The notes under the pieces were generated by a model. That model searched no databases. It saw nothing but the letters and a program-made list of their open reading frames with translations, and was not told the origin of the DNA. The position numbers were made by a program, and so were the translations under genes. DNA of 46,120 bases, filler included, from Streblomastix strix (lineage: Eukaryota): assembly GCA_008636045.1 (NCBI GenBank). It is 2 parts of 2 records of this genome, joined end to end, with 100 filler letters (N's around TTAATTAATTAA, not from the genome) between each part and the next. Parts side by side here need not be neighbours in the genome. Positions count along the whole stretch, not along the records: positions 1 to 23,014 come from SNRW01000301.1; 1 more part is not named here. One strand, 5' to 3'. Positions 9,968-46,073 of this stretch are shown here, piece by piece. Numbering within the stretch: position 1 is the stretch's first letter; every line of letters starts with the position of its first letter.

Positions 9968-12710
9968 TCAATACTTCTTCATCTTTTTTGCTTAATATTC
10001 TTCAGCTTTTTGTTTGGCCAACTCAAGAATAGATTCATCTAATTTAAATTAAGTTGATGTTATGTCAGAATTCTTCTTATCTTTCTCATTCTTCTCATCT
10101 GGTTATGATCCGCGTACTTTTAACTTCTTTTATTGGAGTTTCTTCTGAATCTGTTCCTGTTTCCTCTTCTTTATGACATCAATTGCAATTCCCTTTCCTT
10201 ATTCTCCTTCTTCTTATTTATCCATTTGTGGTTCTTATCCAGTTTCATTTCTTTTTTGTTTCTTTTCTCCATCTTCTGATTCATCTGAGAATTCATAATT
10301 CTTTTCAATATCAATTTAATCTTCATCTTAAATATAATCTTCATCTTCATCTTTTCTAATCCTTTTATTTCCTTATACTACTCCAGTATTATTTAATTCT
10401 TTATCTTATTATTCATTCTCTTATTATTCTTCTTCTCTTGTTCTTTTAATTGGTTTTAATTAATCTAAATCTTTACTATCAAATTAATCATCATTTATAT
10501 AATTATCTTATTCTTAATCTTATTATTAATTACTCTTCTAATTTCTATTCTTCTTTTATTACTTATTCTTATTTTGTTCTCTTCCTCTATTGTTATTGTT
10601 GTTGTTATTATTATTATTATTATTACTTCTTTCTTAATCATTCTGATAATTAAATCCTATCTGATTACTCTAAGTTACTTCCATAATTGGGATCCCCCAC
10701 ATTGTAAGACACTATTCCCTGACTTGTTATTGATTCACAGGAACAAGATTATCATTCCTGATGTATCTGAGTATATTCTCTAATCCTTCTTTCTACTATT
10801 GAGCTATTGTTATATTGGAATTACGAATGAATTGAATGAATTGGTTGGGTATTTGTGTTACTGGGTATAAATGAGTAATTTAATTTGGAGGTTAAGGTTT
10901 AGATGAAGAAGAAGATGAAGAAGAAGATGATGATTAAGAAGAAGATGATTAAGATGATTATTTATTCTATTTCTAAAGAGCAAGTTTGTTGATCATGTAA
11001 TTAACATAGAGAAGATATTCAAATATATTCTCTACTTGATCTGAACCTGAATCTTTTTTAATTTTAATATCACTTTTTCTATCTTGATTTTAATCTTAAT
11101 TATCTTCCCAATTCCTTCTCAAATATTTAACCATAATATTCTTTCTTTATTAATTAGCTTATTTTTCATCTTCTTCTGTCCAAACTAATTCATTATCATT
11201 TTCTTATCCTTTTTATTATTAATCTTTTTCCATTACTTTCTCTTTTGATTTATTTATTCTACTTGTTTCACTTATCATTCTTTGATCTAATAAGAATCCT
11301 CTACATAATACATATCTTTCAGAATTAGCAGGTCTTGATTATAATGGTTTAATTATTGCAAATGAACTGAATACAGTACTTAGTAAGTAAAGTAATTCAA
11401 CAGTGAATGGTGTATATACATCAAATATCTTGCATAAGAAAGTACCTCCTTATCTAAGTACCCCCAATGCTGTTGTGAATTAACATAGGACAAGTTGACG
11501 GAGTTTTAATTCTTAACTATTATAGTCATCATCAACACTGAATCCACCATCTGCAGTTACAAGACTTACGCCAATTCCTCCTGTTTATGTCATAATAACT
11601 TATCTAAATGCACGAATATTGGCTTCCCTTGTCACATCCCCATTTGAATGTGGTCCATATATTGGATGAAACTTATCAGGTGGAGACAAAGCACCAAATA
11701 AATCAAGTTTGAAGTCATCCTGTCCAGTGAGTGTGAATCCCCATCCACGAGCTTATCCCTGACATCTCCAACATATGTATTCAGTGAACCCACCTGGACC
11801 TGCACAAATATCAGCATATGTATCCAGAGGGTGTGGAATGAACATTGGAAGTGCAGACATCCTCTCAGAGACTATATCTTCACGTACAAGCCCAAACAGT
11901 GAGTCCAAATTGGCCATCTTCATAGCTGCTCTATTCTGGAATATCTCTTTCCCTATCTTTTCATATGGGTTACTCTTTGATCGAGCTGTGCGGAATAACT
12001 TTGGTGGGACATCATCAAAGGATGATTTCAATTTGAATATTCGATCAACAAGCACAGATTCTCCAAATGTATCTGAATCAATCTAAGGAAGTTTGGATTC
12101 CTGTATTACCCATGATTTATGATAACCTTATAATGATCTTTATGCACTCAAATCAAATTCACATATAATATCTACTAGTCTAATCTCTCTATGAATGTCC
12201 ATATCTTCATCTAGATCTATATCTCCAGTATCAACCTTCTCTTTCTAACCTTTGAATCCTATACCTCTTCTATCTCCATCTAATTATGCATTTAGCATTG
12301 GAGCAAGTGGATCAATAGTTAATTTAGATGTATTTTTGGATTCTTCTTCTTCTTTTGCTTTTCTTTCTGCACGCATCTTATTTAGTAAATTATCAAATAT
12401 CTCTTTAACCTGAATGTATAGAAAGTTTAATACAATTAAATTAGTTAAACAAAAAATATAGTCATACAGCATTGGGATTGTTAGTCGAACGCAAAAATTT
12501 CCTTCTTCTGAAAAAGTCGGGAGGTGGTCGAGGATCTAGATCTATCATCCATTTAGGATCCATATATGTTTTATTACTAGGGTTGTACAGATTATCAGGA
12601 TCTCTAAATTAAATCCATTAATCATTAGTTTGATACTACGCGTACCGATTGTTTCGCGTGTCTTTCTCTGGCCTTTTTCCTGTACTTGAAGATCTCTGCT
12701 GCTGTGCCAT
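9968..12710 (-). CDS. CMTR1: Cap-specific mRNA (nucleoside-2'-O)-methyltransferase 1-like (FtsJ/RrmJ family)
   Basis: FQNRAAMKMANLD, ADICAGPGGFTEY, GFTL, GDVT, LVTADGGF, QELKLRQLVLCQ, GGTFLCKIFD and KPLQSRPANSERY give the K-D-K-E tetrad. ATG at 12710, one intron at 12410-12467, TGA at 9968-9970, long low-complexity C-terminus. Confidence 0.92.
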
Positions 12711-12822
12711 TACTACTGACCTAATATACAACAAAATAGGTTAAATTTAATGAATAATAAACTTAAAACATAAAAATAATTAAATTGAATCAGAGTGTAT
12801 CAAAAAAGTAATTTAGGATTTC

Positions 12823-12857
12823 TTTAAAACGCGTCAGTGATTTTAAAACGCGTCAGT
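12823..12857. promoter_or_regulatory. Tandem duplicated TTTAAAACGCGTCAGT motif upstream of CMTR1
   Basis: Two exact 16-bp copies (12823-12838 and 12842-12857), CpG-containing in very AT-rich DNA, about 115 bp 5' of the CMTR1 ATG. A regulatory role is inferred only. Confidence 0.45.
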
Positions 12858-12879
12858 AAAATTTTACCCCTTGTTCAGT

Positions 12880-13230
12880 ATATATATTTGTATAGTAAAT
12901 ATGTCAATGATGAATGTTTAGCTTGGAGTATTTCTAGTAACGCACTACACCAAGAAATACAGGTAGATTTTGTAAATTCATAATGTTTCGCTTGTTTTAG
13001 ATAGCATTAAAGTATTTGAAAATATAAAATTTCAAGTTAAAAGCATTAAGTTCAACAAATTATTATTAAATAAATTCATAAAAGCTTTTATTGGTGTAGA
13101 AACTGGCAGTTCAATTGTGAGAAATTTTCCAAAATCAAGTTACATTTATTTCTAAAATTATAATGAAATTAAGAAGATTATAATAGTATAATTAAAAATA
13201 ATTTGTAAAATAAATGCTTTCCATTGATGC
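12880..13230 (+). pseudogene. Degraded intronless ORF fragment, possibly part of the viral element
   Basis: Coding-like pieces in two frames: YSKYVNDECLAWSISSNALHQEIQVDF and DSIKVFENIKFQVKSIKFNKLLLNKFIKAFIGVETGSSIVRNFPK. No clear start codon. Confidence 0.3.
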
Positions 13231-13261
13231 TTATGATTGATGAGAAAAATAAATGTTGTAC

Positions 13262-13864
13262 TCATTAGAAAAGTTCAAACTCGTGTATAACCTTCGTGTG
13301 TTATATTGGTTATTCCTCATTCATCTACTCCTAAGGAGAAACATTTTCTTTCAATATTTCTGACTTATGTTCGATTGGTTGAACTTCCTTCTACTTTAGT
13401 TACTTAAGTTTATTTTTATATTTTTATATTTGTTTCTATGATTGTATGTGTTATTCTTTTATAAATTTGTTTTCTGTTCTTAACTGTATTAGTTCTTCAA
13501 AATCTAGTTAAGGATTAGTGTAGTTAATATTTGGAGCTTTTTATTAATGTTTTTACTTGGTGTTTTTATTCATTACTTTAGGCTTTACTTTAGGAATAGT
13601 TTCTTCTTCATCATCAGCATCGTCATCTTATTCATCTGTGTTGTCTTCATCATTCATATACATTAGACGGGTGTCGACAGGCTTAGGTTGCGGACGTATA
13701 GCCAATAGCTTATTCTATTGTGCTTGAGTCAGCACCTTAGGACCTTTATAACCATCTTCATATACCTTAATCTACTTGCCTACTTACATGATATAACCAT
13801 TGTTGAAGCTCTCTAATGAAGTGCCGTTTTCTTTTAATTTTCTTAGTGCATGTGATTTGTCCAT
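13262..13864 (-). CDS. Viral-element hypothetical protein, 200 aa, with acidic tract and coiled coil
   Basis: Uninterrupted with TAR=Gln: MDKSHALRKLKENGTSLESFNNGYIMQVGKQIKVYEDGYKGPK...DEDNTDEQDDDADDEEE...HEFELFQ, then TGA. Start context TAAATG. Confidence 0.75.
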
Positions 13865-13896
13865 TTATCAATAAATAAATTTTTTAATCAATAAAA

Positions 13897-14469
13897 ATGA
13901 TTAAAAGTATCGAGAGGAATTAACTCCGTATGAGTAAATCAAAGAAGTAAATATAAGACATGAAAAAAGAGTTGTCAGAAGATGATAGACTAAGGTTATA
14001 ATCAATTGATTAAGCACTAAGGAACTTATCAAATCCGCAATAAGAAGCTAACGAAGTGGATATGATTAATGAAGTTAAGTCTAAGAGGCATTATAATAAA
14101 AATAAATATCGTGATGTAGAACGAGAGACTACATAAGTAGAACCTGAGGAAGTAGTTAAAAATACATTCTTAGCACATCCAAATTTATAGGTAATGAAAT
14201 TTATAATTGATAAAGTGTGGAGTAATGTTACATAAAGAAAAAGAGGAGAAGATTTTATTTTCAGTTCTGATAACTTTATTAAATTTTGGTCATTGATAAC
14301 ATAAGAAAATGAAGATGATATAAAGATAGTTTTAGAAGAACCAATAATGTAATCACATACTTATATGAGTAAGACGTATAAGAAAAAAGACTTAGTAAGA
14401 GTAATGGATTATACTCATTAAAAATGTAAGCATCAGTGTATTGGATAATGTGTTGTTCAACTCTGTTGA
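13897..14469 (+). CDS. Viral-element hypothetical protein, 190 aa, Cys-rich C-terminus
   Basis: Uninterrupted with TAR=Gln: MIKSIERNQLRMSKSKKQIQDMKKELSEDDRLRL...FIIDKVWSN...KCKHQCIGQCVVQLC, then TGA. Confidence 0.75.
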
Positions 14470-14567
14470 GAAACTGTATCGAGTAAATAAAGATCTAGTT
14501 AGATTAAGTGATAAGCCGTAGTCAGAAGTGGATCCAAACGAGTTTTGATCAATTTTTTTTTAAGTAA

Positions 14568-15609
14568 ATGGAAACATTAATTGAACCAACTGATGAGGAA
14601 CTAGTTAATATACAAAAACAACTTTAAGAATTACCGCAAAAATAAGAGGAAATAAAGTTATTAGAGAAATTGTAAAAATAACTAACCCCTTTTATTGATG
14701 CAGAGATTGTAAAACTATTTACTTACTTTAGTTAATATATTAAAAATAAAGATGTTGATGTATCACATTTGGTAACATTAAATTCTACTAAAGTCATTAC
14801 TGGAGACAAAACTTTTACTTAACCTATTGTAGTAAATAATATTATAAAGACAAATGGTACATCAAACTAAATTCTATTGGTTAATGGTGATACAAGTGAT
14901 GTAGGAGATTTTTTGCCTAAATATTATCCTCATGCAATGGGTTAAATGATTATTGAACCGAATGATGACATACGTAATTAAGGTATTAGGATAATGAAAA
15001 ATAAAGCGAATTGGGATAGCTTTGTTCTCACTGGTTGTAATGCTGACCCTACAGATAGAGATGGAATATGGAAAGTTGGATCAACTTCATTATAGTTTAG
15101 AATATAAAAATAAGAGGATGAAGCATATGATTATAAGGGATTAATTATTGACTTTGATTGTACAACATTAAAATTTAACAATTAAATTGTATCACCTATT
15201 CCAACTCCTCCTATAGAAAATGCTATCAAATAAACAATTGCTTATGGTATGTATGAGTAATTAGTTTGGGGTTCATTTACAACATATAATGGAAGGGCTT
15301 ATTTATCAGTGTAAGTAACACATAATAATCCTAACACATAGACTTAATCTACCTATACATTATTCTCTGTTTTTTAAAGATGAAGCTAAGCCATAGTTTA
15401 CAGGGACACCTTTTAATATTCCTTTGAATGCTGTTATGTTTGCATAAAAAGTATTAGGATATCCTATATGCTGGAATGGTGCTATTCCAATAGACTGTTA
15501 TATTGATGTAGATGGACATGTTAGAATCAATACAATGTGTTAATTAAATTTACCGGATGGCTTTTGTGTTTAAGTATGCGATTTATATGCCCTACATAAT
15601 TAATCATGA
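14568..15609 (+). pseudogene. Fibre-like protein 1 (phage tail-fibre-like motifs) with a +1 frameshift at the T6 run 15370-15375
   Basis: METLIEPTDEEL...LVTLNSTKVITGDKTFTQPIVVNNIIKTNGTSNQILLVNGD...GLIIDFDCTTLKFN. Frame 0 stops at TGA 15381-15383; the +1 frame continues KDEAKPQFTG...CDLYALHNQS to TGA 15607-15609. Confidence 0.7.
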
Positions 15610-15729
15610 ATAAATTGAATTTCTTACTTCATCACTAATCTCTTCATTATCTAGTTTTATTTGTTATATCGTTAATAAACAACATAGTAGATTGTTAAGA
15701 GCTATAACTATTAATGAAATACTACTCAT
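15604..15729 (-). CDS. Small 41-aa protein with hydrophobic N-terminus (viral element)
   Basis: MSSISLIVIALNNLLCCLLTIQQIKLDNEEISDEVRNSIYS, then TGA. It fills the gap between the ATPase and fibre 1. Confidence 0.45.
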
Positions 15730-15761
15730 TATTTACCAAAACATTTAAGTAAAAATAAAAA

Positions 15762-16794
15762 TCAATTGCGAATAATTTCAAATCTATTTTAATACTTGTT
15801 AATGATTATAAATTCATACTTATTTAATGTGTTGTATATTATCATTAGTTCTTACTCCGTCAGTGTGTTGATGTGGTTTTCTTCATAAACTTACTTTAAG
15901 TCATTGTCTGATATACCAGACCCTATGACTATTACATGACATAATTTTCTAGCAGTTTTAAAAAGATAACATGGTCTTTAGGCTACATAAAACAAAGTAT
16001 TTTTCGCGTGTCTACTATCACTGATTAAGTGAGTTATTGTACGTGATAACTCTGAGGTATAACGTTGTATATCTGTGTTAGAACCTATATCGTCAAACAT
16101 CATTAGTGTAAATAACAACTTAGCATTCGTTAGTATAGGTAGTTTTAATGTTTTGATTATCTCTACACCATCTTCATCTACCTCATGTGTGTCAACGATT
16201 TTCAGTCCTTTTTCATATGACACATTTTGTATCAACGGAGGAATAGAAAAACGTGATACTTTGGTTGGTAGGCTATACGTGTTAATTGTTTCAATACAAT
16301 AGACTTTGAACACTTCTTTCATTCTATTGGGAAACTACTAATAGGACTCATCTTTTTTTTAATTCATTAGAATCAAACATTTCTTACTTGAATCTTTTTA
16401 TGTAATCATTGTTATATCGTATATTCATTTACTTTAACTTATAGTACGTGTATATCTCTTTAACTTTATATTTCAGTTCATCAAATTGAGGTAAGAAAAT
16501 CATAGCTTCATTATATGTCATATTTGTTAGTAGCACTCCCTTATCATTCATATTGATAGCCATAGTCTCGTCTGGTCCTATGTTAGAGAAGTATAACATG
16601 TAAAGATTGATAATATGTTTATATAATATTATTAACTTAGATAGTAAAGTTGTTTTACCACTTCCAACAGCTCCAACTATATAGTGGTTTCCATTAATAA
16701 CAAAGATTGATTTTGAAGTCAATGGTTTTGTTTTATATTCTTCTAACATGCTGTAATTATCGAATTGAAAATGGTTAATATCTTATGAAGTCAT
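15762..16794 (-). pseudogene. FtsK/HerA-superfamily (A32-like) viral genome-packaging ATPase with a +1 frameshift at the A8 run 16353-16360
   Basis: Walker A YIVGAVGSGKTT, Walker B LMMFDD, arginine finger SRH and sensor-Gln strand LFYVAQ (Q is TAA). Joins track ORFs 16429-16749 and 15978-16322; about 343 aa when corrected. Confidence 0.85.
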
Positions 16795-16810
16795 TTATTA
16801 AAAATTGAAT

Positions 16811-17178
16811 TCAAACTTTTTGATTTTAATTTATTAATTTCAAAGTAATTAGATACCGATAACGTTTTGCTAACTTTAAATCTTTATCATCTATTGCTAA
16901 CTACACTAATTAATACAACTCGTCAATCGTAAGCTAATTCCATTATTTTTAATAACATCATTCTAGGAATCCATTTTTCTATGATAAAAAAATTTAACAA
17001 TATACAGTACAATACTTATAGGTATAACTATAACATCAATATGACTCCATAATTTTTTAAATACATTAATCAATTCTTATGCTTCAGGAGGAAGTGCTAG
17101 ACTGATTACCGACAACAATAAGTTAGCACCATAAAAAGTCTAATTTATAACAACGGTTATCAACAATGTAATGTTTAT
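16811..17178 (-). pseudogene. Degraded small membrane protein gene of the viral element (start codon ATA, one frameshift)
   Basis: NITLLITVVINQTFYGANLLLSVISLALPPEAQELINVFKKLWSHIDVIVIPISIVLYIVKFF..., then in another frame QWNQLTIDELYQLVQLAIDDKDLKLAKRYRYL. TAAATA stands where neighbours have TAAATG. Confidence 0.5.
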
Positions 17179-17193
17179 TTATTTTTATTTAAA

Positions 17194-19135
17194 ATGCAAT
17201 CATTAATGTAATAACAACTGTCAGTAATAAAACGATTTATACATTCTGATATAAGTTATTATATGTAATATTCAAAGAAAAATACATCCAGTAGCATTAC
17301 ACAGAGCAATGAATATAATTAGATTATAGCTGATTAAAATAACTTGTTGTATTGTTAGAAAAATAACTCCTCAGAATAAGCTGTGAAACTAACTCCACAG
17401 GGTTTGCTAGTAGTAAATAATCTATAATTATTAAACAATGATTTTCTTTAAAAAATAACTCAGTTAGAATAACAAGTATATCAGATATAATAATAGATAA
17501 ATACTAGCATATAAGACATTGGTTAGTTATAAACAGATGTACAAATAATAAACTAAGAATTATCGAGATAGATACATTTCAGAGGATACTTTGCAACGAA
17601 TGGTGAGATACTAGCTTTGTAAGATAGTGCTATGGGTGATTATGCGTATAGTGCAGAGGATTTACTAGTATGGGTATATGAAATGACGGAGTCCCCGCCT
17701 GCGGCAAACTGGATTGAAACAGATCAAGTGGTACCAGACTAAGTAACGCCGGCTAGTGATACTATACCGTCAAACCCTATTGTAAATGGTAATGCAGGAG
17801 TGAGTACGGAATATAGTCGTGGAGACCATTAACATCCACTATAAGTATCAACAGTATTACTATAGTAAGATACTGCAACTGGTGAAGTAGGCACTGCTGT
17901 CACTTATGCTAGATCCGATCATACTTATCATGTAAATCTAAGTAGCAGTGTACCTCTTAAAGATACTGGAACTGGAACAGCAAGAACAGATAGTGTATAT
18001 GCTAGTGCTACACATTACCATCCATTAAATGTTGATCCCAGTAGTGTGATTGTTCCGTTAGTAAATGCTACTGTTGCGGCTAATGGTACGAGTGATTATT
18101 ATTGTAGAAATGATCATGTCTATTCTTAATAATTAACATATGATGGAAACATTATAGCGACTAAATTTATTAAGACTGGTGGATTACCAACAGAAGTGTT
18201 ATGCGCTAATGGTTATACTACAACAATAGATGCAAAGCTTTCACTTACATATTCAGCGTATAATTCTGTATAAATCATTAGACTACAACATTATTACACC
18301 GTTAATGGTATCAATACCGTATATGGAGTGTTTACTGCTCCAACTAGAGTTACATCTTATTATTTAATAGATAATGGTGCCAATTAATTATTTCATAATC
18401 ACTCTGGTTCTAGGACTTCTGCAATTTATTCAGCATATGTTAGATTAGAATCGGCTGGTAACGTTACGATAGTTGTATCTGATTAAAGCACTTATTATAC
18501 AAATAGAATCACAGAGATATTAACATAAGATGTAGTCTCCAGAGTATCAAATGGTACATAAATACCAATTAATTATGATTTAGCTAATGGTGGAATAATA
18601 AATAATAAGTTATAAGTTAATCCAACAGGACGAACATATACTAAGTTTAATAATGGTATTAGAATTGGAAACTATAACACTGAATACTCATCATTATATT
18701 TATGATGTTCAACTACAGCTATAGATACTACACGAACTGGTTAATGGGAAATAAGTAAAACAAGTGATATAGCATTAACAATAAATCCGACATCTTTACG
18801 ATAAACTGATCATAGTGTTGGTTTATCTATTAATAGTGATAGTTCAATAATAAAATTTAATGGTAATGAATTAGTTAATGTTGGAACTGATTAAACAATT
18901 ACAGGTAGAAAGACATTTGGAGGTACTACTTTAGGTAGTATTTAATTAAATCCAACTGATACAAATTATCCATTATTAGTATTCAATAATAATAACAATT
19001 ATTTGGAGTAGAACAGCTGACTAAAATATAGATAGTAGAGGACTAATGATCTTAGCTGATGGAAACACATTATCTTTCAATGGATCAGTTATCGCTGGCA
19101 CAGGAACAACAAATGGAGCTACGGTAATGTAATGA
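17194..19135 (+). pseudogene. Fibre-like protein 2: coiled coil, four H-x-H-type repeats and beta-rich fibre modules; internal TGA at 18703-18705 and disrupted 3' end
   Basis: About 503 open codons from ATG 17194: HFRGYFATN, YSRGDHQHP, YARSDHTYH, YASATHYHP, YCRNDHVYS, FIKTGGLPTEVLCANG. After the TGA it continues GTDQTITGRKTF, then in a shifted frame RGLMILADGNTLSFNGS. Confidence 0.78.
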
Positions 19136-19298
19136 AAGCAGTCATAATTCATTAAAGAAACAGATCAAATTTTAGTGTGAATAAAGAAAATAAATTTTAA
19201 AATTTCAATAGAATTAAAAGGAATTAATCTCTTTTGATCTTATTTATTGAACAGAACAATAGTCGCAAAGCAGATTATGCAATATAAATTATCCAGTT

Positions 19299-20484
19299 TC
19301 ATTTGTTACTCTTATTAAATTGATCTTTATTCTATTTGAAGCCCTGAACAACAGTGAATGATATGTTTGTAACTGTTACTCTTGGTTCTTCCATTCCAAT
19401 ATCATAACGCTTAATTTTAGGTGAACCAAATGGATTCTTTTGGAATGGAGGAGTGATCTTTGTTTGCAAGTTCCTGAATTATTTATAAATATATAATTTA
19501 TATTAAATACAATAAATAAAGTTCATATTTAAAACCTTTAATCGATATACTTTGTTGCATATTCAAGTTCTTCATCATTTCTAACTGTAATAAGTGTTGG
19601 GACATTCAATTCTCCAATCTCTTCCATTGTAATTTTCCAAGGATCTTATTTTTTCAGTGCCATTTTAAGGATATAATCGTCAGGCCTTTCAAAATTTGAT
19701 ATGAAACCTAAAACAGGATTAAATAGTACGATTAGATAAGGTTATAATCTTTATCCAGTTTATTTCTTCTTTCGACACAACTCATCAAATGTTGATCTAA
19801 TAAATGTTACATTCATTCGATCAGAAATTGTACGTTCTTTCATTGCTTACTCACAATTTGGTGATAGATCAGGTCCAACGAATATGATATTGAAATGAGC
19901 TTATGGAAAGAAACGAACAATTTCACCCCAGAAATGAACTTCTTGATTTGTTTGAGCATTTAATTGATATTCTTCTGTTTGTTAATTTGCACCAACAATG
20001 TAGATATTATTTGGATTTTCTGGTCCGAATTTTGGAAAATGGAATAAGTATTGAAGAACGAAAATAATTGTCATTGGATAACTAAGAGCTTCAGTAATTT
20101 ATTTGGCAATAAATTCCCATCTAAAGAAATCTTAGTTAAGATTTTAGTTGTACAACTTTCCTCTTGCGAAATAATCTTCTCAGTTTCTTAATATAAACAT
20201 TTAAAATGGATTCATATTAAAAATGTTGTCCTCTTCTTTTGAAACATCTGCTTTTTTTTATACTTCTGAAGTTAAAAGTTGTTGAAAATTCTTGCATTAC
20301 AATTTATGAATCTTCCAATGCTACTTCTAATGTTCTTTGCAACTGAATATATGCAAAATAACATCAAATTTTTATTTGATAAATATATATAGATTTGCTC
20401 AAACCAATAAGGTGTAACTTTGCAAGCTGAACATTACGTAGCACATTCTTTTCCACACACAGCACATGTACGTTTTTTATCCAT
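19299..20484 (-). pseudogene. zf-MYND plus MSS51-like C-terminal domain protein, 2 introns, in-frame TGA at 20180-20182
   Basis: CAVCGKECATQCSACKVTPYCCKEHQKQHWKIHKLQC (MYND), then LSYPMTI, IYIVGA, IIFVGPDL, LFNP and NPFGS. Introns at about 20343-20404 and 19474-19535. Confidence 0.8.
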
Positions 20485-22044: not shown

Positions 22045-22400
22045 GTAGTGGGCAAACAGGGGGTCAGCCCTTAAGAAAAATTAAAAAAATTATTCGGCAT
22101 AAAAATTGATTTATATTTAATAATAAATGATGAACGATAACAGATATTTTATGCAACTGTTGAAGAATTATTTATAAAGAATACTCATAATCATTATTTT
22201 AATATGATTATTGAAATAAATTTACTAATGAAAAGAAAATGAATTATCTTTGATGAATAACTTTAATAATGAAAATTAATTATACGTGCAATGGCTATGA
22301 ATATTGATATACGTTGCTTTGTGCGTTAATTTGATTAGATTATTGATAGCGATAATTTTTTTAATTTTTCTACGGGCTGATCCCCCTGTTTGCCCACTAC
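22045..22400. mobile_element. MITE-like non-autonomous DNA transposon, about 356 bp, with about 50-bp imperfect terminal inverted repeats
   Basis: Left end gtagtgggcaaacagggggtcagcccttaagaaaaattaaaaaaattat; the right end reverse-complements to gtagtgggcaaacagggggatcagcccgtagaaaaattaaaaaaattat. AT-rich non-coding interior; no clear target-site duplication. Confidence 0.8.
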
Positions 22401-23014: not shown

Positions 23015-23114
23015 NNNNNNNNNNNNNNNNNNNNNNNNNNNNNNNNNNNNNNNNNNNNTTAATTAATTAANNNNNNNNNNNNNNNNNNNNNNNNNNNNNN
23101 NNNNNNNNNNNNNN
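23015..23114. other. Artificial 100-nt contig linker (N44-TTAATTAATTAA-N44)
   Basis: Symmetric N runs around a 12-mer with TAA in all six frames, exactly 100 nt in total. Confidence 0.9.
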
Positions 23115-29100: not shown

Positions 29101-32100
29101 ATAGTATATGAAATGAAATATATGTAAACATTTAAATAAATTAATATATATAAGCTTATTATTCCAATTAATTCCTTATTCTTTTTACTTCCTGTATATC
29201 ATCCTTCATTTAATTCTCTTTAACTTATAGGCCAGCACCGAAACCAACTACGGCGGCTTATTAGTTCTTAGAGGTGATGGTTTACTCTCACTGTACAATA
29301 TATCCTTCAGCTAAACAGATGTGTGGTAGGCACAATTATCATCAACGATCTTCGCTACTGCTGGAGATGTGCAGATCGAGAACTGCATATTCAGTGAGTG
29401 TGAGTTTGACAATAGTGTGGAGAGGAGGTGCGTGTTGGTTGTTTAAATGAAAGAAAGAAGGAATAATTTTAATATAATTTTAATATAATTTTAATATAAT
29501 TTTTAAAATTTATTGAATTTATTGAATTTGTATAATTTATAGAAAGAAATCTGCAGCAGTATATTGTGCTGATAAAACTGGTAAAGTGAATATCACTGGT
29601 TCATCATTTGATACAGTATTTATTTTTTTAATAATTTTTATTATCAATTTTTTAATTCCTTCATACAATTTAATCATTTATAATTTAATCATTTATAATT
29701 TAATCATTTATAATTTAATCATTTATAATTTAATCATTTATAATTTAATCATTTATAATTTAATCATTTATAATTTAATCATTTATAATTTAATCATTTA
29801 TAATTTAATCANNNNNNNNNNTTAATCATTTATAATTTAATCATTTATAATTTAATCATTTATAATTTAATCATTTATAATTTAATCATTTATAATTTAA
29901 TCATTTATAATTTAATCATTTATAATTTAATCATTTATAATTTAATCAATTTTATTTCAATCATTTTTACTTCAATTAATTTTTATTCATTCTAATTATT
30001 ATTATTATTATCATCATCATCATCATTAGATTCAAACATATGGATACGATTCTCCCATTACGCAGAGCATGAGAACAGATAAGCCACAAATATACGGAGA
30101 TGGAGTCGTGGAATATGAAGGAGCAGCTATTTATATTGATGCATGTTAAATATATAATATTATATTAAGCATGAATAAGAATTAGTATTAAGTAGAACTT
30201 GATGATTAAACTAATTTATTGATGTTTGTTTATTTATATATATTTTCTATATATTATTTATTGCATAGGAAGCGCAACAGTTCATCTGCATTAATACTAA
30301 TATAACCCGATGCGATGGATGGAGAGTAGGTGGAATCAATTTGCACAAGTTAGCATTCTCTAATATGAGCATGATAAGTATGATTTAAATAAAGGATTGC
30401 TATTTACTTCTTTTATTCATTTATTCATATTTTCTATAATTTTTTTTTTTATTATTTCATTTTTTTCTCTATAATTCTTTTTATTATTATTAATACCCAG
30501 ATTGCACATTTACTAAGAACAAAGCCATGGAAGGTGAGAAAATTCAGGATTTCGTTTCTAAAATGTTGATTGGCAATGATTTGATCTTAGATTACAAATT
30601 CCTGAGAGAGGATGCAATTAATAGCATATAGGGTATATTTGAATTAATTATAGAAATAATACTTGATTAGGAATATTCGTTATTAATAATTTACTATTTA
30701 CAATTTCTTTATTTTTTTTATTATATTTAATTTAGGTTGTTCTTCAATATCCGCATTCCCACTCATTGGATCCAAAGATCCTTAGTTTGGATATGGAGTA
30801 TTTGGTATGAAATGTTTTTAAATTAAAAAATTAATTTTTATTTATTTTATTTTATTATCATAAAAACAATATTACAACCCTATTTATAACATTATTATTA
30901 TATATTTAATATTTATATCTTTTTAATAGATTACCTTCTTCAATCATCGATGTATGTAGACACAGTATATGCATCAATTAAAGACGGAAATGATGTCACT
31001 GGATAAGGTTTTGATATATTTATTATGATGAATAAATAAAATTTTGTTTTATTTAATTATTTATATTGATTTATATTCATATTTATTTATTATTACTTTA
31101 AAATTTCTTCTAAAAGGAACATAAGATCAGCCATATAAAACTGTGAGTGTTGCAACATCAAGAGCTGCATCTGCATAAGTATAAAAAATTAATAAAAAAT
31201 ATTTATTTATTAAATTTATTCATTCATTTTACTTTTCATTATAAATATTATTTTTTATTTATTTTTAAAATTTTAGGACAGAGTGACATTAATATAAATA
31301 AACGAAGGACTTTATCAAGAAAGATTAATTATGATTGGTTTGAATAAAATATATGATATTATTATTTTATATTTAATTTTTTGTATTAAAATTATTTATT
31401 TAATATTATTCAATTCATTTTTATTATATTTATATTTACAGGTGGTAGGTAACTTGGAATGCAAGGCGAACCTATTCCAGATAGTTAACCAGAAATGCCT
31501 GGACCGACTATTGTATGAAATTTGCATTATTTTATCTTGTTAATTATTGATAAAAAAAATATTTTTTTCATTTTTTGTTTTTTATTCATAAATTAATTTA
31601 GCTTCAAAATACAGAAGAGACAATTGATGAATTCATTGCTGTATATAATGGGACATTGGAAATTCATCTTCTTTTGGTTCTGATTGAAAATAGATATGAA
31701 GTCATTGCTCAGAATGCGTATGAAAACTATTTAATAGATTTTTATATTAATAGAATAATATAAAATATTTATTTGACTTATTCTCTATTTTTTTTATATT
31801 TTTTTCTTTATTTTTTTCTTTAATTTTCTTTGATAATTGTCTTAATACAAAATAGATTCTATATTCTATCAATTCGAGGTCTCTAATCAAATTTGGCCAT
31901 CACATCATGCACATTTGCTACTGTAGATTAATAAGTTTCATTGAAAGATGAAGTATATATTATTTTGCTGATATCAAAGAAATAAATTTAATTTAGGATT
32001 TCATTAACAAAATTCAATAATTAATTTAATTTAATTTTTTATTGTTTAATTCATATCAGGTACTCAATGCGGAAAGAGGAGCAAATATAACCATTGGAAC

Positions 32101-41890: not shown

Positions 41891-42265
41891 CTTTGAGAAA
41901 TTATAAAGCAAAATTCAGAAATAAATTATTTATATATTTATAAAAATATTAACTAAAAAATTGTGAAATGCTTGTTTAACTAAACATTATATCAAAATAT
42001 TCTATTATTAGATTGAAAACTACCATAAACTTTTCGTGGATTATTTCTACGTCAATTCCATAATTTTTGATTTGTTTTATATTTAATTATTAGTAATGTT
42101 TAAATATATAGTTATATTTTTTAAAATATCATGAATATTTAATGCCATTAGCCTTTAATATTAAACTAAACAGTTTTTTTAATTATTAGATTTTTGCTTA
42201 AATTGATACAGTTTTTTATTTATTTTTTAACATTTTTCTTTATTTCATTAATTTTTAAATAGCAT

Positions 42266-45200
42266 ATGATCTCTATAAAGCAAACAAGTCAGTCATAAGT
42301 CTCATTTGACATGGAAGAATACTTAGCAATGGCTTCCAGACGTGAAGACATTCAATCAAACACATATTCGTCTATCACAGGCACGATAGCATATTGGAAT
42401 GATGCTGAACCACACAATCAAGGCTAATATTGGTATTTCTGGCTCAAACCTAGTGGAAAATTTTCTTCGCATTCTGAACCATGGATTTGTCTTGTTGTTG
42501 ATGAAAACAACCCTTCTATTGATATGCTTAAAACTGCAGCAGAGTCGAAATCATACTAAGAATTTGAATTGAATGTGCTTATAGTGCCTAGACAGCCTGA
42601 TTATCTGTAATTTGTAATTTCCAAAGATGATGAAGTGAATTAAATATTTTCAAGAGTTCCAACTATTAAAGTATCCGATCTAAATAACACTTAATTTAAT
42701 CCAATTGTACAACCAACAGAAACGTAACCAATTTAAATTCATCCAGTTGAAGAGTGGAATTTGATTGTGAAATGGACAGGTTATGTGTCTGAAGATGATT
42801 TAAAGTTAATTTTTAATCCACTTGGAGCTGAAAGTGTAATGATGCTTAAAAGTGAAGTTGAAATTGGTGAAGGATAAGCATAGATTAATTTCAAGACGTA
42901 ATTAGATGCTTAGAATGCACTTGATTAAACTGATGGGGTAAATATTAAGGGATCTGCACTAGGAGTTGAAATATAAAAATAAAACTAGTTTGAAGGAAAT
43001 CTTATGCCAGGTATAATCAGTTATTTATATTTGATTTTATTTTATTTGATGATTGATATTTTATTATTATCGTTTTATTTATTTATTTTATTTTATTAAC
43101 ATGATATTATTTATATAACAACTCATATTTCAGCTCCTGTTGAATCATGCAGACTATTCATAAAAGGTCTGAGTCCATTAACTACAGATGATGATCTTAA
43201 GAAGTTGTTTGAAGAAGTTGGTTAAGTGGAAAGCGTAAATATTATTACAAGTAGGAGTGGTAAAAGCAGAGGATTCAGATTCGTGACAATGTGCGATATT
43301 GAAACAGCAAGGATCGCAGTGACAGTTTTGAATAAGCGTGTTCTTGATGGGCGCATTATTAAGGTTTAGTTTTCTATGCCATAACAAATAAACCCTCATA
43401 AACATACTCCTCCTCCTCCTACGCTAAAACCAGGTTATTTGCAACTAAAAAATGTAATTATAAATTGATTATTTTTAATTTCGATTATTTACGTAATAAT
43501 TTATTTTTTTATTATTATTATATTATTTAGCTCCACTTGGTCCAATTACATCAGATGTAATATTCTCAGATTAAGAAACCGCTCAATAACAAGGAAATGT
43601 GATAATCCACGCACCTGATAATTATAACCATTCTACAATTGCTTATAAACCCGTAATAACAAAAGGAATTGTTAGATTCGAGGGAATATTTTAGAAATAT
43701 AGAGATTTTCCATATTGTTTGTTTTATTTGAATATAAAATACAAATTTAAAGAAATTTTTATTTTATTTTATTTTATTTTACTTTTCATTATTAGTTTAT
43801 AATTTATTTATTAATTAAATGTTTTCTTAATTATTTATTATATATTGAATTATTAACAGAGATCGGAATTTCAGAATCTTCTGTTTGGTTTGATTCTAAA
43901 AAAGAACCTGGAGATATAAAATGTTTGAATTAATTATTTTGAAATTAAATATATAAAAACCGAAAAGTATAATTTTTATTTTACTTTATTTAATAATTTA
44001 TTTATTTCTTGCCATTTAAACTATTCTTATACTTAATTAGACAAAGGAAAGACAGTTTGTTATAAGAATAAGTATGCAAAATATCATGAATTTTATATTT
44101 CAACATATTAATAATTGTAATTTATGAATAATTTCAATATCTTAATATTTAATTGCAATTTCTATTACATCCGATTCAGCGGCTGCATTACTCACATGAA
44201 TAATACAGAAATTGCAGGTAATGCCAAGATTGAAGATGGATAAACAGTTGCATTAGAAGTTTGTATTATAATTGATGAAATAATAATATATAAATATTTC
44301 ATAAAAATATTATTTATTTAATCTTTTTGAATTATTATTTATCATTATTTTAATTATCTTTTTGTTTATACTGAATATTTGAATTAGGTGAACATGTCAA
44401 CAACTCCGCGAACATTGACATTCTTCATCAATGGTCAAGAATAACAAATATCAATAAGCAGCATTCCTCCTTCAATAAAATTCTGGGTTCGTATGAAATA
44501 TAAAATGAATTTATTTGTTTTAATTCCACAATATTTATTTATTTTATTTATTTAAATCATTATTCATTTAAACTTTATTCATTTTATTTTATTTTAAAGA
44601 TCAATTTATGTGTTCCAAATTAATCATTTACTCTTACATGTTTTGAAAGAATTCAATCTCCTTCATCAACAGGTTTATAGATTTCTAAAGTTATAAATTG
44701 GGGATCTGCTAAAGTTGTATAAAAAAGTATGATTAATAAAATTTAAATTATTAAATAAACCGTTATTATTTCAACTATTTATTTTCCATAATAATCTTTT
44801 TTCTTCTTCTATTCAACTATAATTACACCCTACACATTTGTATATCCAAGGGCTAATTCCTCCTGTAATACCACCTGTTTTACCATGCAAACTTTACGTT
44901 GGTGGTTTAAATCCATTAACTACTGCTGCAGATCTTGGGAAGCTTTTTGGAGAAGTGGGTTAAGTTGAAAGCGCAAATATTGTTTCTAGAGATGAAGGGG
45001 GAAATGGAGGATTCGGATATGTGACAATGCGTGATATTGAAACAGCTTAGAGGGCAGTAACAGTTCTGAATAAGCGTGTTCTTAATGGACGCAAAATTGA
45101 AGTTAAAATTTCTGAGCCACCAATTAATCCTCCTAAACTAACTCCTCCTGTAGGACGAAATCCAGGTTATTTGCAACTATAAATGTAATTATAAATTGAT

Positions 45201-46073
45201 TATTTTTAATTTCGATTATTTACGTAATAATTAATATTTATTATTGTATAAAATAATATATATTTTAATTTAGTTTAATATCAATTTTTTATTATTATTT
45301 ATACATATAAACTTAATTTCATTATTAGAACCAACAACTATAAAACCTATCAAATTATTTGTTAGAAATTTGAATTTTTAAACCACGTCTGATGATCTTG
45401 GGAAGCTTTTTGAAGAAGTTGGTTAAGTGGAAAGCGCAAATATTGCTACATATAAGAGTGGTAAAAGCAAAGGATTTGGATTCGTGACTATGTGCGATAT
45501 TGAAACAGCATAAAAGGCAGTGACTGACCTGAATAAGCGTGTTCTTAATGGGCGCATTATTGAAGTTTAGTTTTCTGAGCCGAAACCAATTGATCCTCAA
45601 ATGCAAACTCTTCCTGTTGGACCAAAACCAGAGTTATAGTCTTCTGCATTGAAATAGATCGAACTTACTCACCCAGGTAAAAACAATTATTATATAATTA
45701 TAAATTGATTATATTTAATTGAAATCATATATAATTATTATTAAATAAAATTAAACAAAACACTATTCTAAAATATATTATTTTAATTTTATTGTTATTT
45801 TAATAATAACTTATTAATTAATACTCCTTTTTTCTTCTATTCAACTATAATTACACCCTTCACATTTGCAGGTTTAGAATAAATTGCTCCACTACCACAA
45901 CCAAATGCGGAGATGAATCAACAAATCCCATTTCCTGGAATGATTCCAAATTATGTTAATTAGTATAATAATCCTTTTGGAATGATTAACTAATAGGGAC
46001 TTCCCTAACTTGGAAATATGTCCAATCAACAATTCCCGCCTTAGCCCTATCTATAAACACAATAATAATTACC

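Follow-up and report, generated by a model that had tools for sequence, protein, structure and literature searches.

A32-like FtsK/HerA ATPases are the packaging motors of Polintons, Polinton-like viruses (PLVs), virophages and nucleocytoplasmic large DNA viruses (NCLDVs). The papers cited by identifier in this text were accessible in part, and what we draw from them holds for those parts. Intact elements span 14-40 kb, and phage-like fibres are common in PLVs, those of Trichomonas vaginalis included (PMC12220804). The major capsid proteins (MCPs) of Streblomastix strix form a Metamonada group, the elements use the translation table of their host, and a row of Table S4, whose column heads are absent and which is given here as we interpret it, counts 820 S. 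strix MCP hits in one capsid cluster (PMC10120064). Metamonad elements are listed as ungrouped in a further source (10.64898/2026.06.19.733378). Here, we describe a virus-like segment of ∼6.3 kb at positions ∼12,800-19,126 of a 46,120-nucleotide stretch of S. strix DNA (assembly GCA_008636045.1; the whole stretch is called the window), located between a host CMTR1-like gene and a host MSS51-like gene. The segment holds an ATPase gene with FtsK/HerA motifs and two fibre-like genes, reads TAA and TAG as Gln, belongs to a multi-copy family with conserved gene order, and carries lesions and a truncation. We consider it likely to be a damaged, truncated remnant of a highly repeated code-6 element, probably a PLV integrated in an oxymonad (Streblomastix-type) genome. 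An earlier note on this DNA had read the segment as the morphogenesis and attachment block of an integrated virus; its observation is partly confirmed and its interpretation partly supported by the analysis below.

Under translation table 11, the segment contains only two open reading frames (ORFs) of at least 80 aa (114 and 106 aa), whereas six genes fill it when it is read with table 6, and a small remnant gene may lie between the ATPase and fibre 2. The genes are therefore hidden by the non-standard code, as had been proposed. The features of the segment are as follows.

12780..19126, no strand: whole virus-like segment; the left end is approximate, and on the right the segment breaks off within fibre 2.
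12901..13240, plus strand: orfA, putative basic protein of ∼110 aa, inferred reading frame.
13262..13864, minus strand: orfB, 200 aa, with an acidic patch and a predicted coiled coil; the frame is open under table 6.
13897..14548, plus strand: orfC, conserved, ∼218 aa, with a frameshift near 14,409.
14568..15609, plus strand: fibre 1, short and fibre-like, with a repeat module common with fibre 2 and a frameshift near 15,370.
15762..16794, minus strand: predicted packaging ATPase of the A32-like FtsK/HerA type (345 aa in its intact form); a frameshift at an A-run near 16,353 divides the gene.
16815..17190, minus strand: tentative small membrane-protein gene remnant without an ATG, an open frame with one clearly hydrophobic stretch.
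17194..19126, plus strand: fibre 2, with an N-terminal coiled coil, His-containing repeats, a tailspike-like beta-sandwich and C-terminal repeats.

TAA and TAG account for 103 of the 129 Gln codons in the six segment frames; the CMTR1-like gene of the host uses them for 61 of its 89. In the ATPase, the sensor Gln, near-invariant across 20 aligned homologues, is itself a TAA codon, and therefore the virus genes depend on the reassigned code of the host. Such dependence would confine a virus of this kind to code-6 hosts. Code 6 has a single stop, and the window yields 268 open stretches of at least 100 aa; for this reason, long ORFs alone are no evidence and the case is carried by homologue searches. 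The head-to-head and tail-to-tail packing described earlier is found in the starts of orfB and orfC, which lie 32 bp apart, and in the ends of fibre 1 and the ATPase, which are separated by 152 bp.

Four runs (X1-X4), three of which are termite gut metagenomes, contain this DNA. In run X1, 3,160 contigs align to the window, and their summed depth is 18.5-36.9 in the bins of 11,500-12,824 and 182-32,142 in the bins of 12,825-19,184. Summed contig depth gives no copy number; the contrast nevertheless marks the segment as highly repetitive. The same depth profile places the left end at ∼12,780-12,810, and the left host-flank contig terminates at 12,807. The right end lies at 19,123-19,126; fibre homology stops at 19,120-19,126 in 31 of 32 homologue tails. 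These values replace the borders of 12,880 and 19,135 given before.

Homologue searches returned many diverged copies, often with conserved gene order, and all named homologues are from S. strix. The searches yielded 24 clusters for the C-terminal half of the ATPase (among 170 candidates; the clusters are all S. strix hypothetical proteins, and one is probably the window's own gene model), 114 clusters for orfC (122 candidates), and 420 clusters for fibre 2 (7,118 candidates, with the 120 listed all from S. strix). Fused gene models join the ATPase to fibre 1 or fibre 2, and orfC to fibre 1. The tail-to-tail order of fibre 1 and the ATPase recurs in P0003, P0005, P0014, and P0024, and an orfC or fibre model lies within five locus tags of 7 of 40 ATPase models on equal-size contigs, the partners having been picked by hand. 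Taken together, the homologue clusters, the recurring gene order, and a depth far above that of the host flank support an integrated multi-copy virus-like family, in line with the integrated virus proposed earlier.

The ATPase carries its motifs in FtsK/HerA order: Walker A from 16674, Walker B with an Asp-Asp pair from 16097, an Arg-His finger at 16016, and the sensor Gln at 15980. The set is complete, as the earlier note had stated, but it is spread over two frames by the frameshift. In the intact relative P0001 (345 aa), which is 72% and 74% identical to the two halves, all motifs lie in one ORF. Other ATPase subfamilies contain intact proteins of 338-345 aa at >90% identity. A helical insertion lies between Walker A and Walker B in the S. 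strix ATPase and is absent from P0175, a typical A32-like match.

When 1.84 billion representatives were searched with a profile, 45 matched, metagenomic proteins among them. HHalign of the S. strix ATPase profile against the metagenomic clade gave an end-to-end alignment (probability 99.9, E 9.9e-34, 289 columns). The Pox_A32 cut-off was passed by 4 of 13 distant homologues, namely three of that metagenomic clade and P0175, and the cut-offs of other ATPase families were passed by none of the 13. In the Atlas comparison, P0001 scored 0.97 to Pox_A32 clusters of Parabasalia and Nucleocytoviricota, and its ten best family-bearing matches share a family or clan. The profile of the wider ATPase family matched HerA (E 8e-5) and the packaging ATPase B204 of STIV (E 0.003, C-terminal part); as a control, the FtsK of an integrative and conjugative element (ICE) aligned with the ATPase profile over 15 columns only. 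The motifs, the HHalign result, the relatives that pass Pox_A32, and the Atlas score support the prediction of an A32-like packaging ATPase. A match to PHROG 2666 ("terminase large subunit", E 7e-6) raised the candidate of a tailed-phage terminase, which was rejected, and the match was read as one of P-loop packaging type.

Searches for relatives outside S. strix were also carried out. With P0001 as the query, tblastn found no match in 72,556 plasmids or 50,697 phages, and scans of prokaryotic genome contigs with A6 and A9 found no relative. Scans of viral contigs with P0001, P0155, P0172, A4, P0162, P0175, and A9 gave nothing useful, with the limit that back-translated patterns may miss code-6 genes. 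A metagenome scan over 4 of 64 parts gave two weak P-loop matches, of which L001 is a bacterial ICE-type FtsK. In an ATPase tree of 36 rows, from which P0013, P0024, and P0182 were left out because they have no core, the 20 S. strix-type rows group at only 85/82; the tree contains no named viral references and does not place the family. The fold model of the ATPase was unusable (mean predicted local distance difference test (pLDDT) 35.3). The Pox_A32 link through relatives, together with the empty plasmid, phage, and prokaryotic-genome searches, supports indirectly, by sequence comparison, that the ATPase is nearer to viral A32 than to cellular or plasmid FtsK/HerA proteins, as the earlier note had assumed. 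Two of the refuting conditions named in the earlier note gave no refutation, in that no plasmid, phage, or prokaryotic-genome relative came up and related copies are numerous.

Some details of the ATPase models are recorded here as observations. The helical insertion, which holds the frameshift (16,273-16,432, minus strand), is read through by none of the 11 other models of the subfamily (P0002-P0005, P0007, P0013, P0014, P0017, P0020, P0021, and P0024), six of which treat it as an intron, and the other two subfamilies mostly read through it. The skipping is most likely a gene-prediction artefact on older copies, and it may alternatively be a shared lesion, intron gain, or programmed frameshifting. 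A programmed frameshift or a real intron in the ATPase is unlikely, since Walker A, too, is skipped by the subfamily models and the extra base is missing from an X1 contig of depth 77. The JGI/IMG fragments P0146, P0335, and P0336 of the family are short, and P0146 breaks off directly ahead of a site that is Gln in S. strix relatives, which is what calling code-6 relatives with a standard code would produce. The full-length relatives P0172, P0198, P0183, P0197, P0195, and P0155 lie on contigs of 14.7-21.8 kb, which is the size of a whole Polinton-like genome.

The fibre genes share a repeat module, with 25-36% identity between fibre 1 and the repeats of the fibre 2 family, and three of the 120 listed fibre 2 clusters bear the UniRef name "Tail fiber protein." A model of the intact fibre 2 relative P0040 (mean pLDDT 59.6) contains a coiled coil, low-confidence repeats, a beta-sandwich, and C-terminal repeats. 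Against a viral structure library, the best match of this model was the long tail fibre gp37 (E 3.6e-9), with 139 matches at E ≤0.001. The central sandwich best resembles the tailspike-like WceF (Z 9.1, root mean square deviation 4.4, 130 residues aligned); next come six chains of phage fibres, tailspikes, or baseplates (Z 6.1-6.3). By sequence, a PDB search with the fibre gave coiled-coil matches only, tblastn of P0040 against the phages gave no match, and the fibres received no Pfam (collagen and phage-tail repeat (PTR) included), PHROG, or NCBIfam name. The shared module and the resemblance of the P0040 model to phage fibres and tailspikes uphold the two fibre-like genes seen earlier, and the label "phage-like fibre" is fair, with moderate support from a model. 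In addition, P0027, P0048, P0050, and ∼19 other fibre 2 models start with a ∼65-aa amphipathic, Gly-rich peptide, which is probably a separate small gene fused by the predictor. This peptide, which may resemble the membrane-lytic adenovirus protein VI, is absent from the window.

Genes of this kind could also belong to a capsid-less non-autonomous transposon, to a domesticated host cluster of virus-derived genes, or to phage or plasmid DNA of a symbiont. There is no capsid gene at the locus, the fibre resembles phage proteins, and the skipped insertion in the 11 subfamily ATPase models could be taken in the same sense. On the other hand, the genes are tied to the host nuclear code, since TAA and TAG encode Gln in them and do so at a near-invariant catalytic position too, and the plasmid, phage, and prokaryotic-genome searches were empty. 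The intact ATPases of the other subfamilies also speak against such an origin, and the lesions weigh against domestication of this copy. We regard this group of explanations as highly improbable.

Another possibility is an origin of the block in some other class of virus (a small NCLDV or Mriyavirus-like virus, for example, or a second capsid lineage), and not in the Polinton-like family with the Metamonada MCP. Consistent with this, the Atlas neighbours of the ATPase include Nucleocytoviricota besides the Parabasalia clusters, the ATPase with its long insertion forms a clade of its own together with metagenomic proteins, and the linkage to the published MCP is putative. However, the hundreds of fibre and orfC clusters match the scale of the MCP hits reported for one capsid cluster (PMC10120064, in the part accessible), and no NCLDV core gene family was found in the window. 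Compact head-to-head packing, fibres, and an amphipathic-peptide gene beside many fibre copies also fit elements of 15-25 kb. A different virus class therefore appears quite unlikely, and a Polinton-like family remains the preferred assignment.

Most genes of the copy in the window are damaged. Single-base indels relative to other copies, as seen in contigs, lie near 13,200 in orfA (against 3 X1 contigs and 1 X2 contig), near 14,409 in orfC, near 15,370 in fibre 1 (against 5 X1, 1 X2, and 2 X3 contigs), near 16,353 in the ATPase, and near 16,945 in the remnant gene (against 3 X1 contigs). The frameshifts in orfC, fibre 1, and the ATPase are upheld by protein homologues. For orfC, 67 of 114 homologues read through the shifted region and the homologue C-terminus matches the other frame of the window, while both frames of fibre 1 match the gene models P0145, P0148, P0294, and P0306. 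Fibre 2 has an in-frame deletion of ∼27-29 codons near 18,255 in a segment kept by 57 of 64 homologues, a TGA at 18,703 where 56 of 58 homologues have Gly or Ala, a deletion with a frameshift near 19,011-19,040, and an end that lacks the final ∼46 codons. Run X1 contains exact or near-exact contigs within the segment at a depth of 6-22, one of which, exact over 261 bp, crosses the deletion that the window itself has in fibre 2. Based on these contigs, at least part of the decay is real. The morphogenesis and attachment module of the earlier note thus stands as to its packaging ATPase and fibre genes, but the copy is a damaged, truncated remnant and not a working module; it is inert, and its damage had been missed.

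Several results weigh against the reading of a decayed PLV copy, and those that concern the assembly also bear on the explanation of an assembly artefact, in which repeat copies were merged into a false consensus or chimerically joined. Under that explanation, the lesions, the junctions, or both would be absent from any one molecule, and the virus-like family would still be real. The family is one of high-copy microvariants, and none of the 26 listed pieces among 3,683 short-read pieces bridges a junction. No run has depth to the right of 19,185, although the filter leaves records out and this proves nothing. Four indels are single bases, with at least two in homopolymer runs, and frameshifts in such repeats are reported as possible assembly artefacts or false consensus in the accessible text of PMC10120064. 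Opposing these points, the exact and near-exact X1 contigs occur at host-like depth, and one of them crosses the fibre 2 deletion. Other gene models repeat the tail-to-tail order of fibre 1 and the ATPase, and the TGA substitution, the ∼28-codon deletion, and the lost C-terminus are not homopolymer errors. Furthermore, the host genes on the two flanks are each whole and share one strand. An assembly artefact as the source of the segment is, on balance, unlikely, and a decayed copy of an integrated element is retained as the better account.

The remaining points against this account concern homology and missing parts. The Pox_A32 profile missed the window ATPase and all 12 rows of the first alignment, and the link to this family runs through relatives. 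For the fibre, the template modelling (TM) scores were low (0.07-0.20 over the top 20 rows), the P0040 model had no PDB match at E 0.001 or better, a Z below 8 may reflect a common arrangement, and the model is that of a relative, with a mean pLDDT of 59.6. Among 265 of the 268 six-frame window stretches, there was no family match for an MCP, a penton, a family B DNA polymerase primed by a protein (pPolB) or other replicase, an rve integrase or tyrosine recombinase, or a protease. Pentons are often undetectable by Pfam. No unassigned ORF of the segment nears the ∼560 aa of the published S. strix MCP. Terminal inverted repeats (TIRs) were not found, as no inverted repeat joins the segment ends and the right end falls inside a gene. 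None of eight published S. strix MCP locus tags adjoins a tag of an ATPase, orfC, or fibre model in a comparison by eye, which has too few tags for power. Finally, the segment measures ∼6.3 kb against the 14-40 kb of intact elements. Because the MCP, replicase, integrase, TIRs, and length of an intact element are wanting here, we treat the locus as a derived fragment working like a part of a PLV and not as a member element.

The history that we propose is that a PLV family spread through the host genome, with integration by an integrase encoded by the element. The capsid, replication, and end regions of this copy would then have been deleted, and decay would have left between two host genes an inert piece in which the packaging and attachment block survives only in part. 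For intact members, we suppose that the A32-like ATPase would drive the linear genome into a capsid of the double-jelly-roll type and that the fibres, as trimers, would stand at the vertices as spikes and attach to surface glycans through their tailspike-like domain. The putative roles of the ATPase and the fibres rest on what is established for A32-like motors and for the fibres of PLVs, and the same analogy suggests trimers and glycan binding. The probable capsid partner is the Metamonada-group MCP family of the published work, a putative link.

The smaller genes gave few leads. No match was found for orfA or orfB in Pfam, PHROG, or NCBIfam (none significant for orfB), and orfC had no PDB sequence match, no name in the same three collections, and a best Atlas score of 0.88, which is a lead only. 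The remnant gene had no family match and no counterpart among 354 proteins compared. The remaining features near the segment are as follows.

12822..12866, plus strand: 13-nt CG-containing motif, two tandem copies upstream of orfA (direct repeat family D4).
9968..12710, minus strand: left host gene, an FtsJ-family methyltransferase (CMTR1-like; PF01728, E 1.4e-30).
19299..20484, minus strand: right host gene, MSS51-like, with an N-terminal Cys-rich finger and introns (PF20179, E 6e-14); its ends are taken from translations.

The 9-nt core of the D4 motif has two exact matches in the window and, with one mismatch allowed, five against 2.8 expected, which is not significant; the tandem motif is a possible candidate for a promoter or near-terminal motif. 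Near both ends there is a 10-nt direct repeat; because it sits inside the right host gene, it was not accepted as a target-site duplication.

Under code 6, the host genes with a Pfam match encode a family 47 glycosidase, the FtsJ methyltransferase, which we take to be CMTR1-like, the MSS51-like protein, Tctex-1, and RRM proteins. The CMTR1-like gene has one 58-nt GT-AG intron near 12,410-12,467, seen as a spliced joint in an X4 contig that covers 1.2 kb, and its second exon is open over 813 codons. The window is AT-rich: the GC content amounts to 0.286 in the segment and 0.303 in the CMTR1-like exon, as compared to 0.243 and 0.248 for the two flanks. The abrupt change away from intron-dense host genes that was noted earlier thus holds for the compact code-6 block, but the left neighbour is intron-poor and the GC shift is mild. 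The window contains three runs of N, those at 23,015-23,114 and 29,812-29,821 among them, and the segment lies within the first gap-free 23 kb.

The spliced X4 contig ends at 12,720, where the window has a minus-strand 3' splice acceptor (12,720-12,722), and beyond this point it carries 14 nt foreign to the region and an adapter-like tail, presumably adapter. A short first exon of the CMTR1-like gene may be missing, perhaps displaced by the insertion, or X4 may represent another strain (∼98% identical). Elsewhere in the window, a pair of 49-nt inverted repeats at 22,045-22,400, 84% complementary and 258 nt apart, resembles a small non-autonomous DNA transposon, and RRM-domain coding units with similar flanks occur at least three times at 42,071-45,705, which suggests local tandem duplication. 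A tRNA scan of the window found none.

The locus is an ordinary copy that is useful because it samples the genes carried by S. strix endogenous viruses, for which the searchable texts give capsid counts only. In the literature covered, from which subscription papers are mostly absent, no description of the S. strix ATPase-fibre module was found, and the block is not described in the accessible parts of PMC8502044, 10.1101/2024.03.23.586382, and 10.1101/2020.01.28.923185. The "poorly described lineage" of the earlier note is apt insofar as metamonad elements are unplaced; it is less so in that code-6 endogenous viruses of S. strix (PMC10120064) and phage-like PLV fibres (PMC12220804) are already known. 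The remaining interest lies in the divergent ATPase clade, which could help to place unclassified metamonad elements and which, with its relatives (P0155, P0162, P0172, P0183, and others), offers a practical classification marker. Metagenomic members of this insertion-bearing clade lie on contigs of up to 17-22 kb. We put forward, tentatively and as something short of probable, that S. strix harbours a deep, unplaced fibre-bearing Polinton-like lineage marked by this clade, metagenomic members included. If so, the ATPase would be a handle for finding free relatives or those of other hosts and for placing metamonad elements. With at least 420 tailspike-like fibre variants in one protist genome, the attachment proteins would then seem to have diversified strongly, and the targets may be glycans on the host or on its coat of bacteria.

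Among described systems, the S. strix endogenous viruses with the Metamonada MCP (PMC10120064, MMPC_40) are similar in that they come from the same organism as the homologues found here, use the same translation table, and occur at a similar copy scale; they are defined in the accessible text by the capsid only, whereas the present locus has no MCP. The Pox_A32 and FtsK/HerA ATPases (PF04665; STIV B204) share Walker A, the Asp-Asp Walker B, the Arg-His finger, and the sensor Gln with the ATPase, but the S. strix family falls below any Pfam cut-off and has the helical insertion. The fibre-bearing PLVs, including cryptophyte PLVs, Gezel-14T, and the MELD viruses, also have an A32-like ATPase beside modular phage-like fibres, compact intron-free packing, and many integrated, often degraded copies (PMC12220804 and PMC8502044, as far as accessible). 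Unlike them, the fibres here have no detected Peptidase_S74 chaperone, laminin G, or collagen domain, and the locus uses code 6 and lacks a TIR, an MCP, and an integrase. The Maverick-Polintons of T. vaginalis and other parabasalid polintons differ in that no named parabasalid protein is among the ATPase homologues looked up, the window fibres have no collagen or PTR Pfam match, and the window has no KilA or DUF4106 match. In addition, the ATPases of the parabasalid clusters measure ∼285-292 aa, as compared to 338-345 aa for the S. strix type. They nonetheless share a metamonad host with the present family, the PLVs of T. vaginalis carry PTR fibres (PMC12220804, in part), and the Atlas clusters nearest to the ATPase belong to Pox_A32, with Parabasalia as their commonest phylum.

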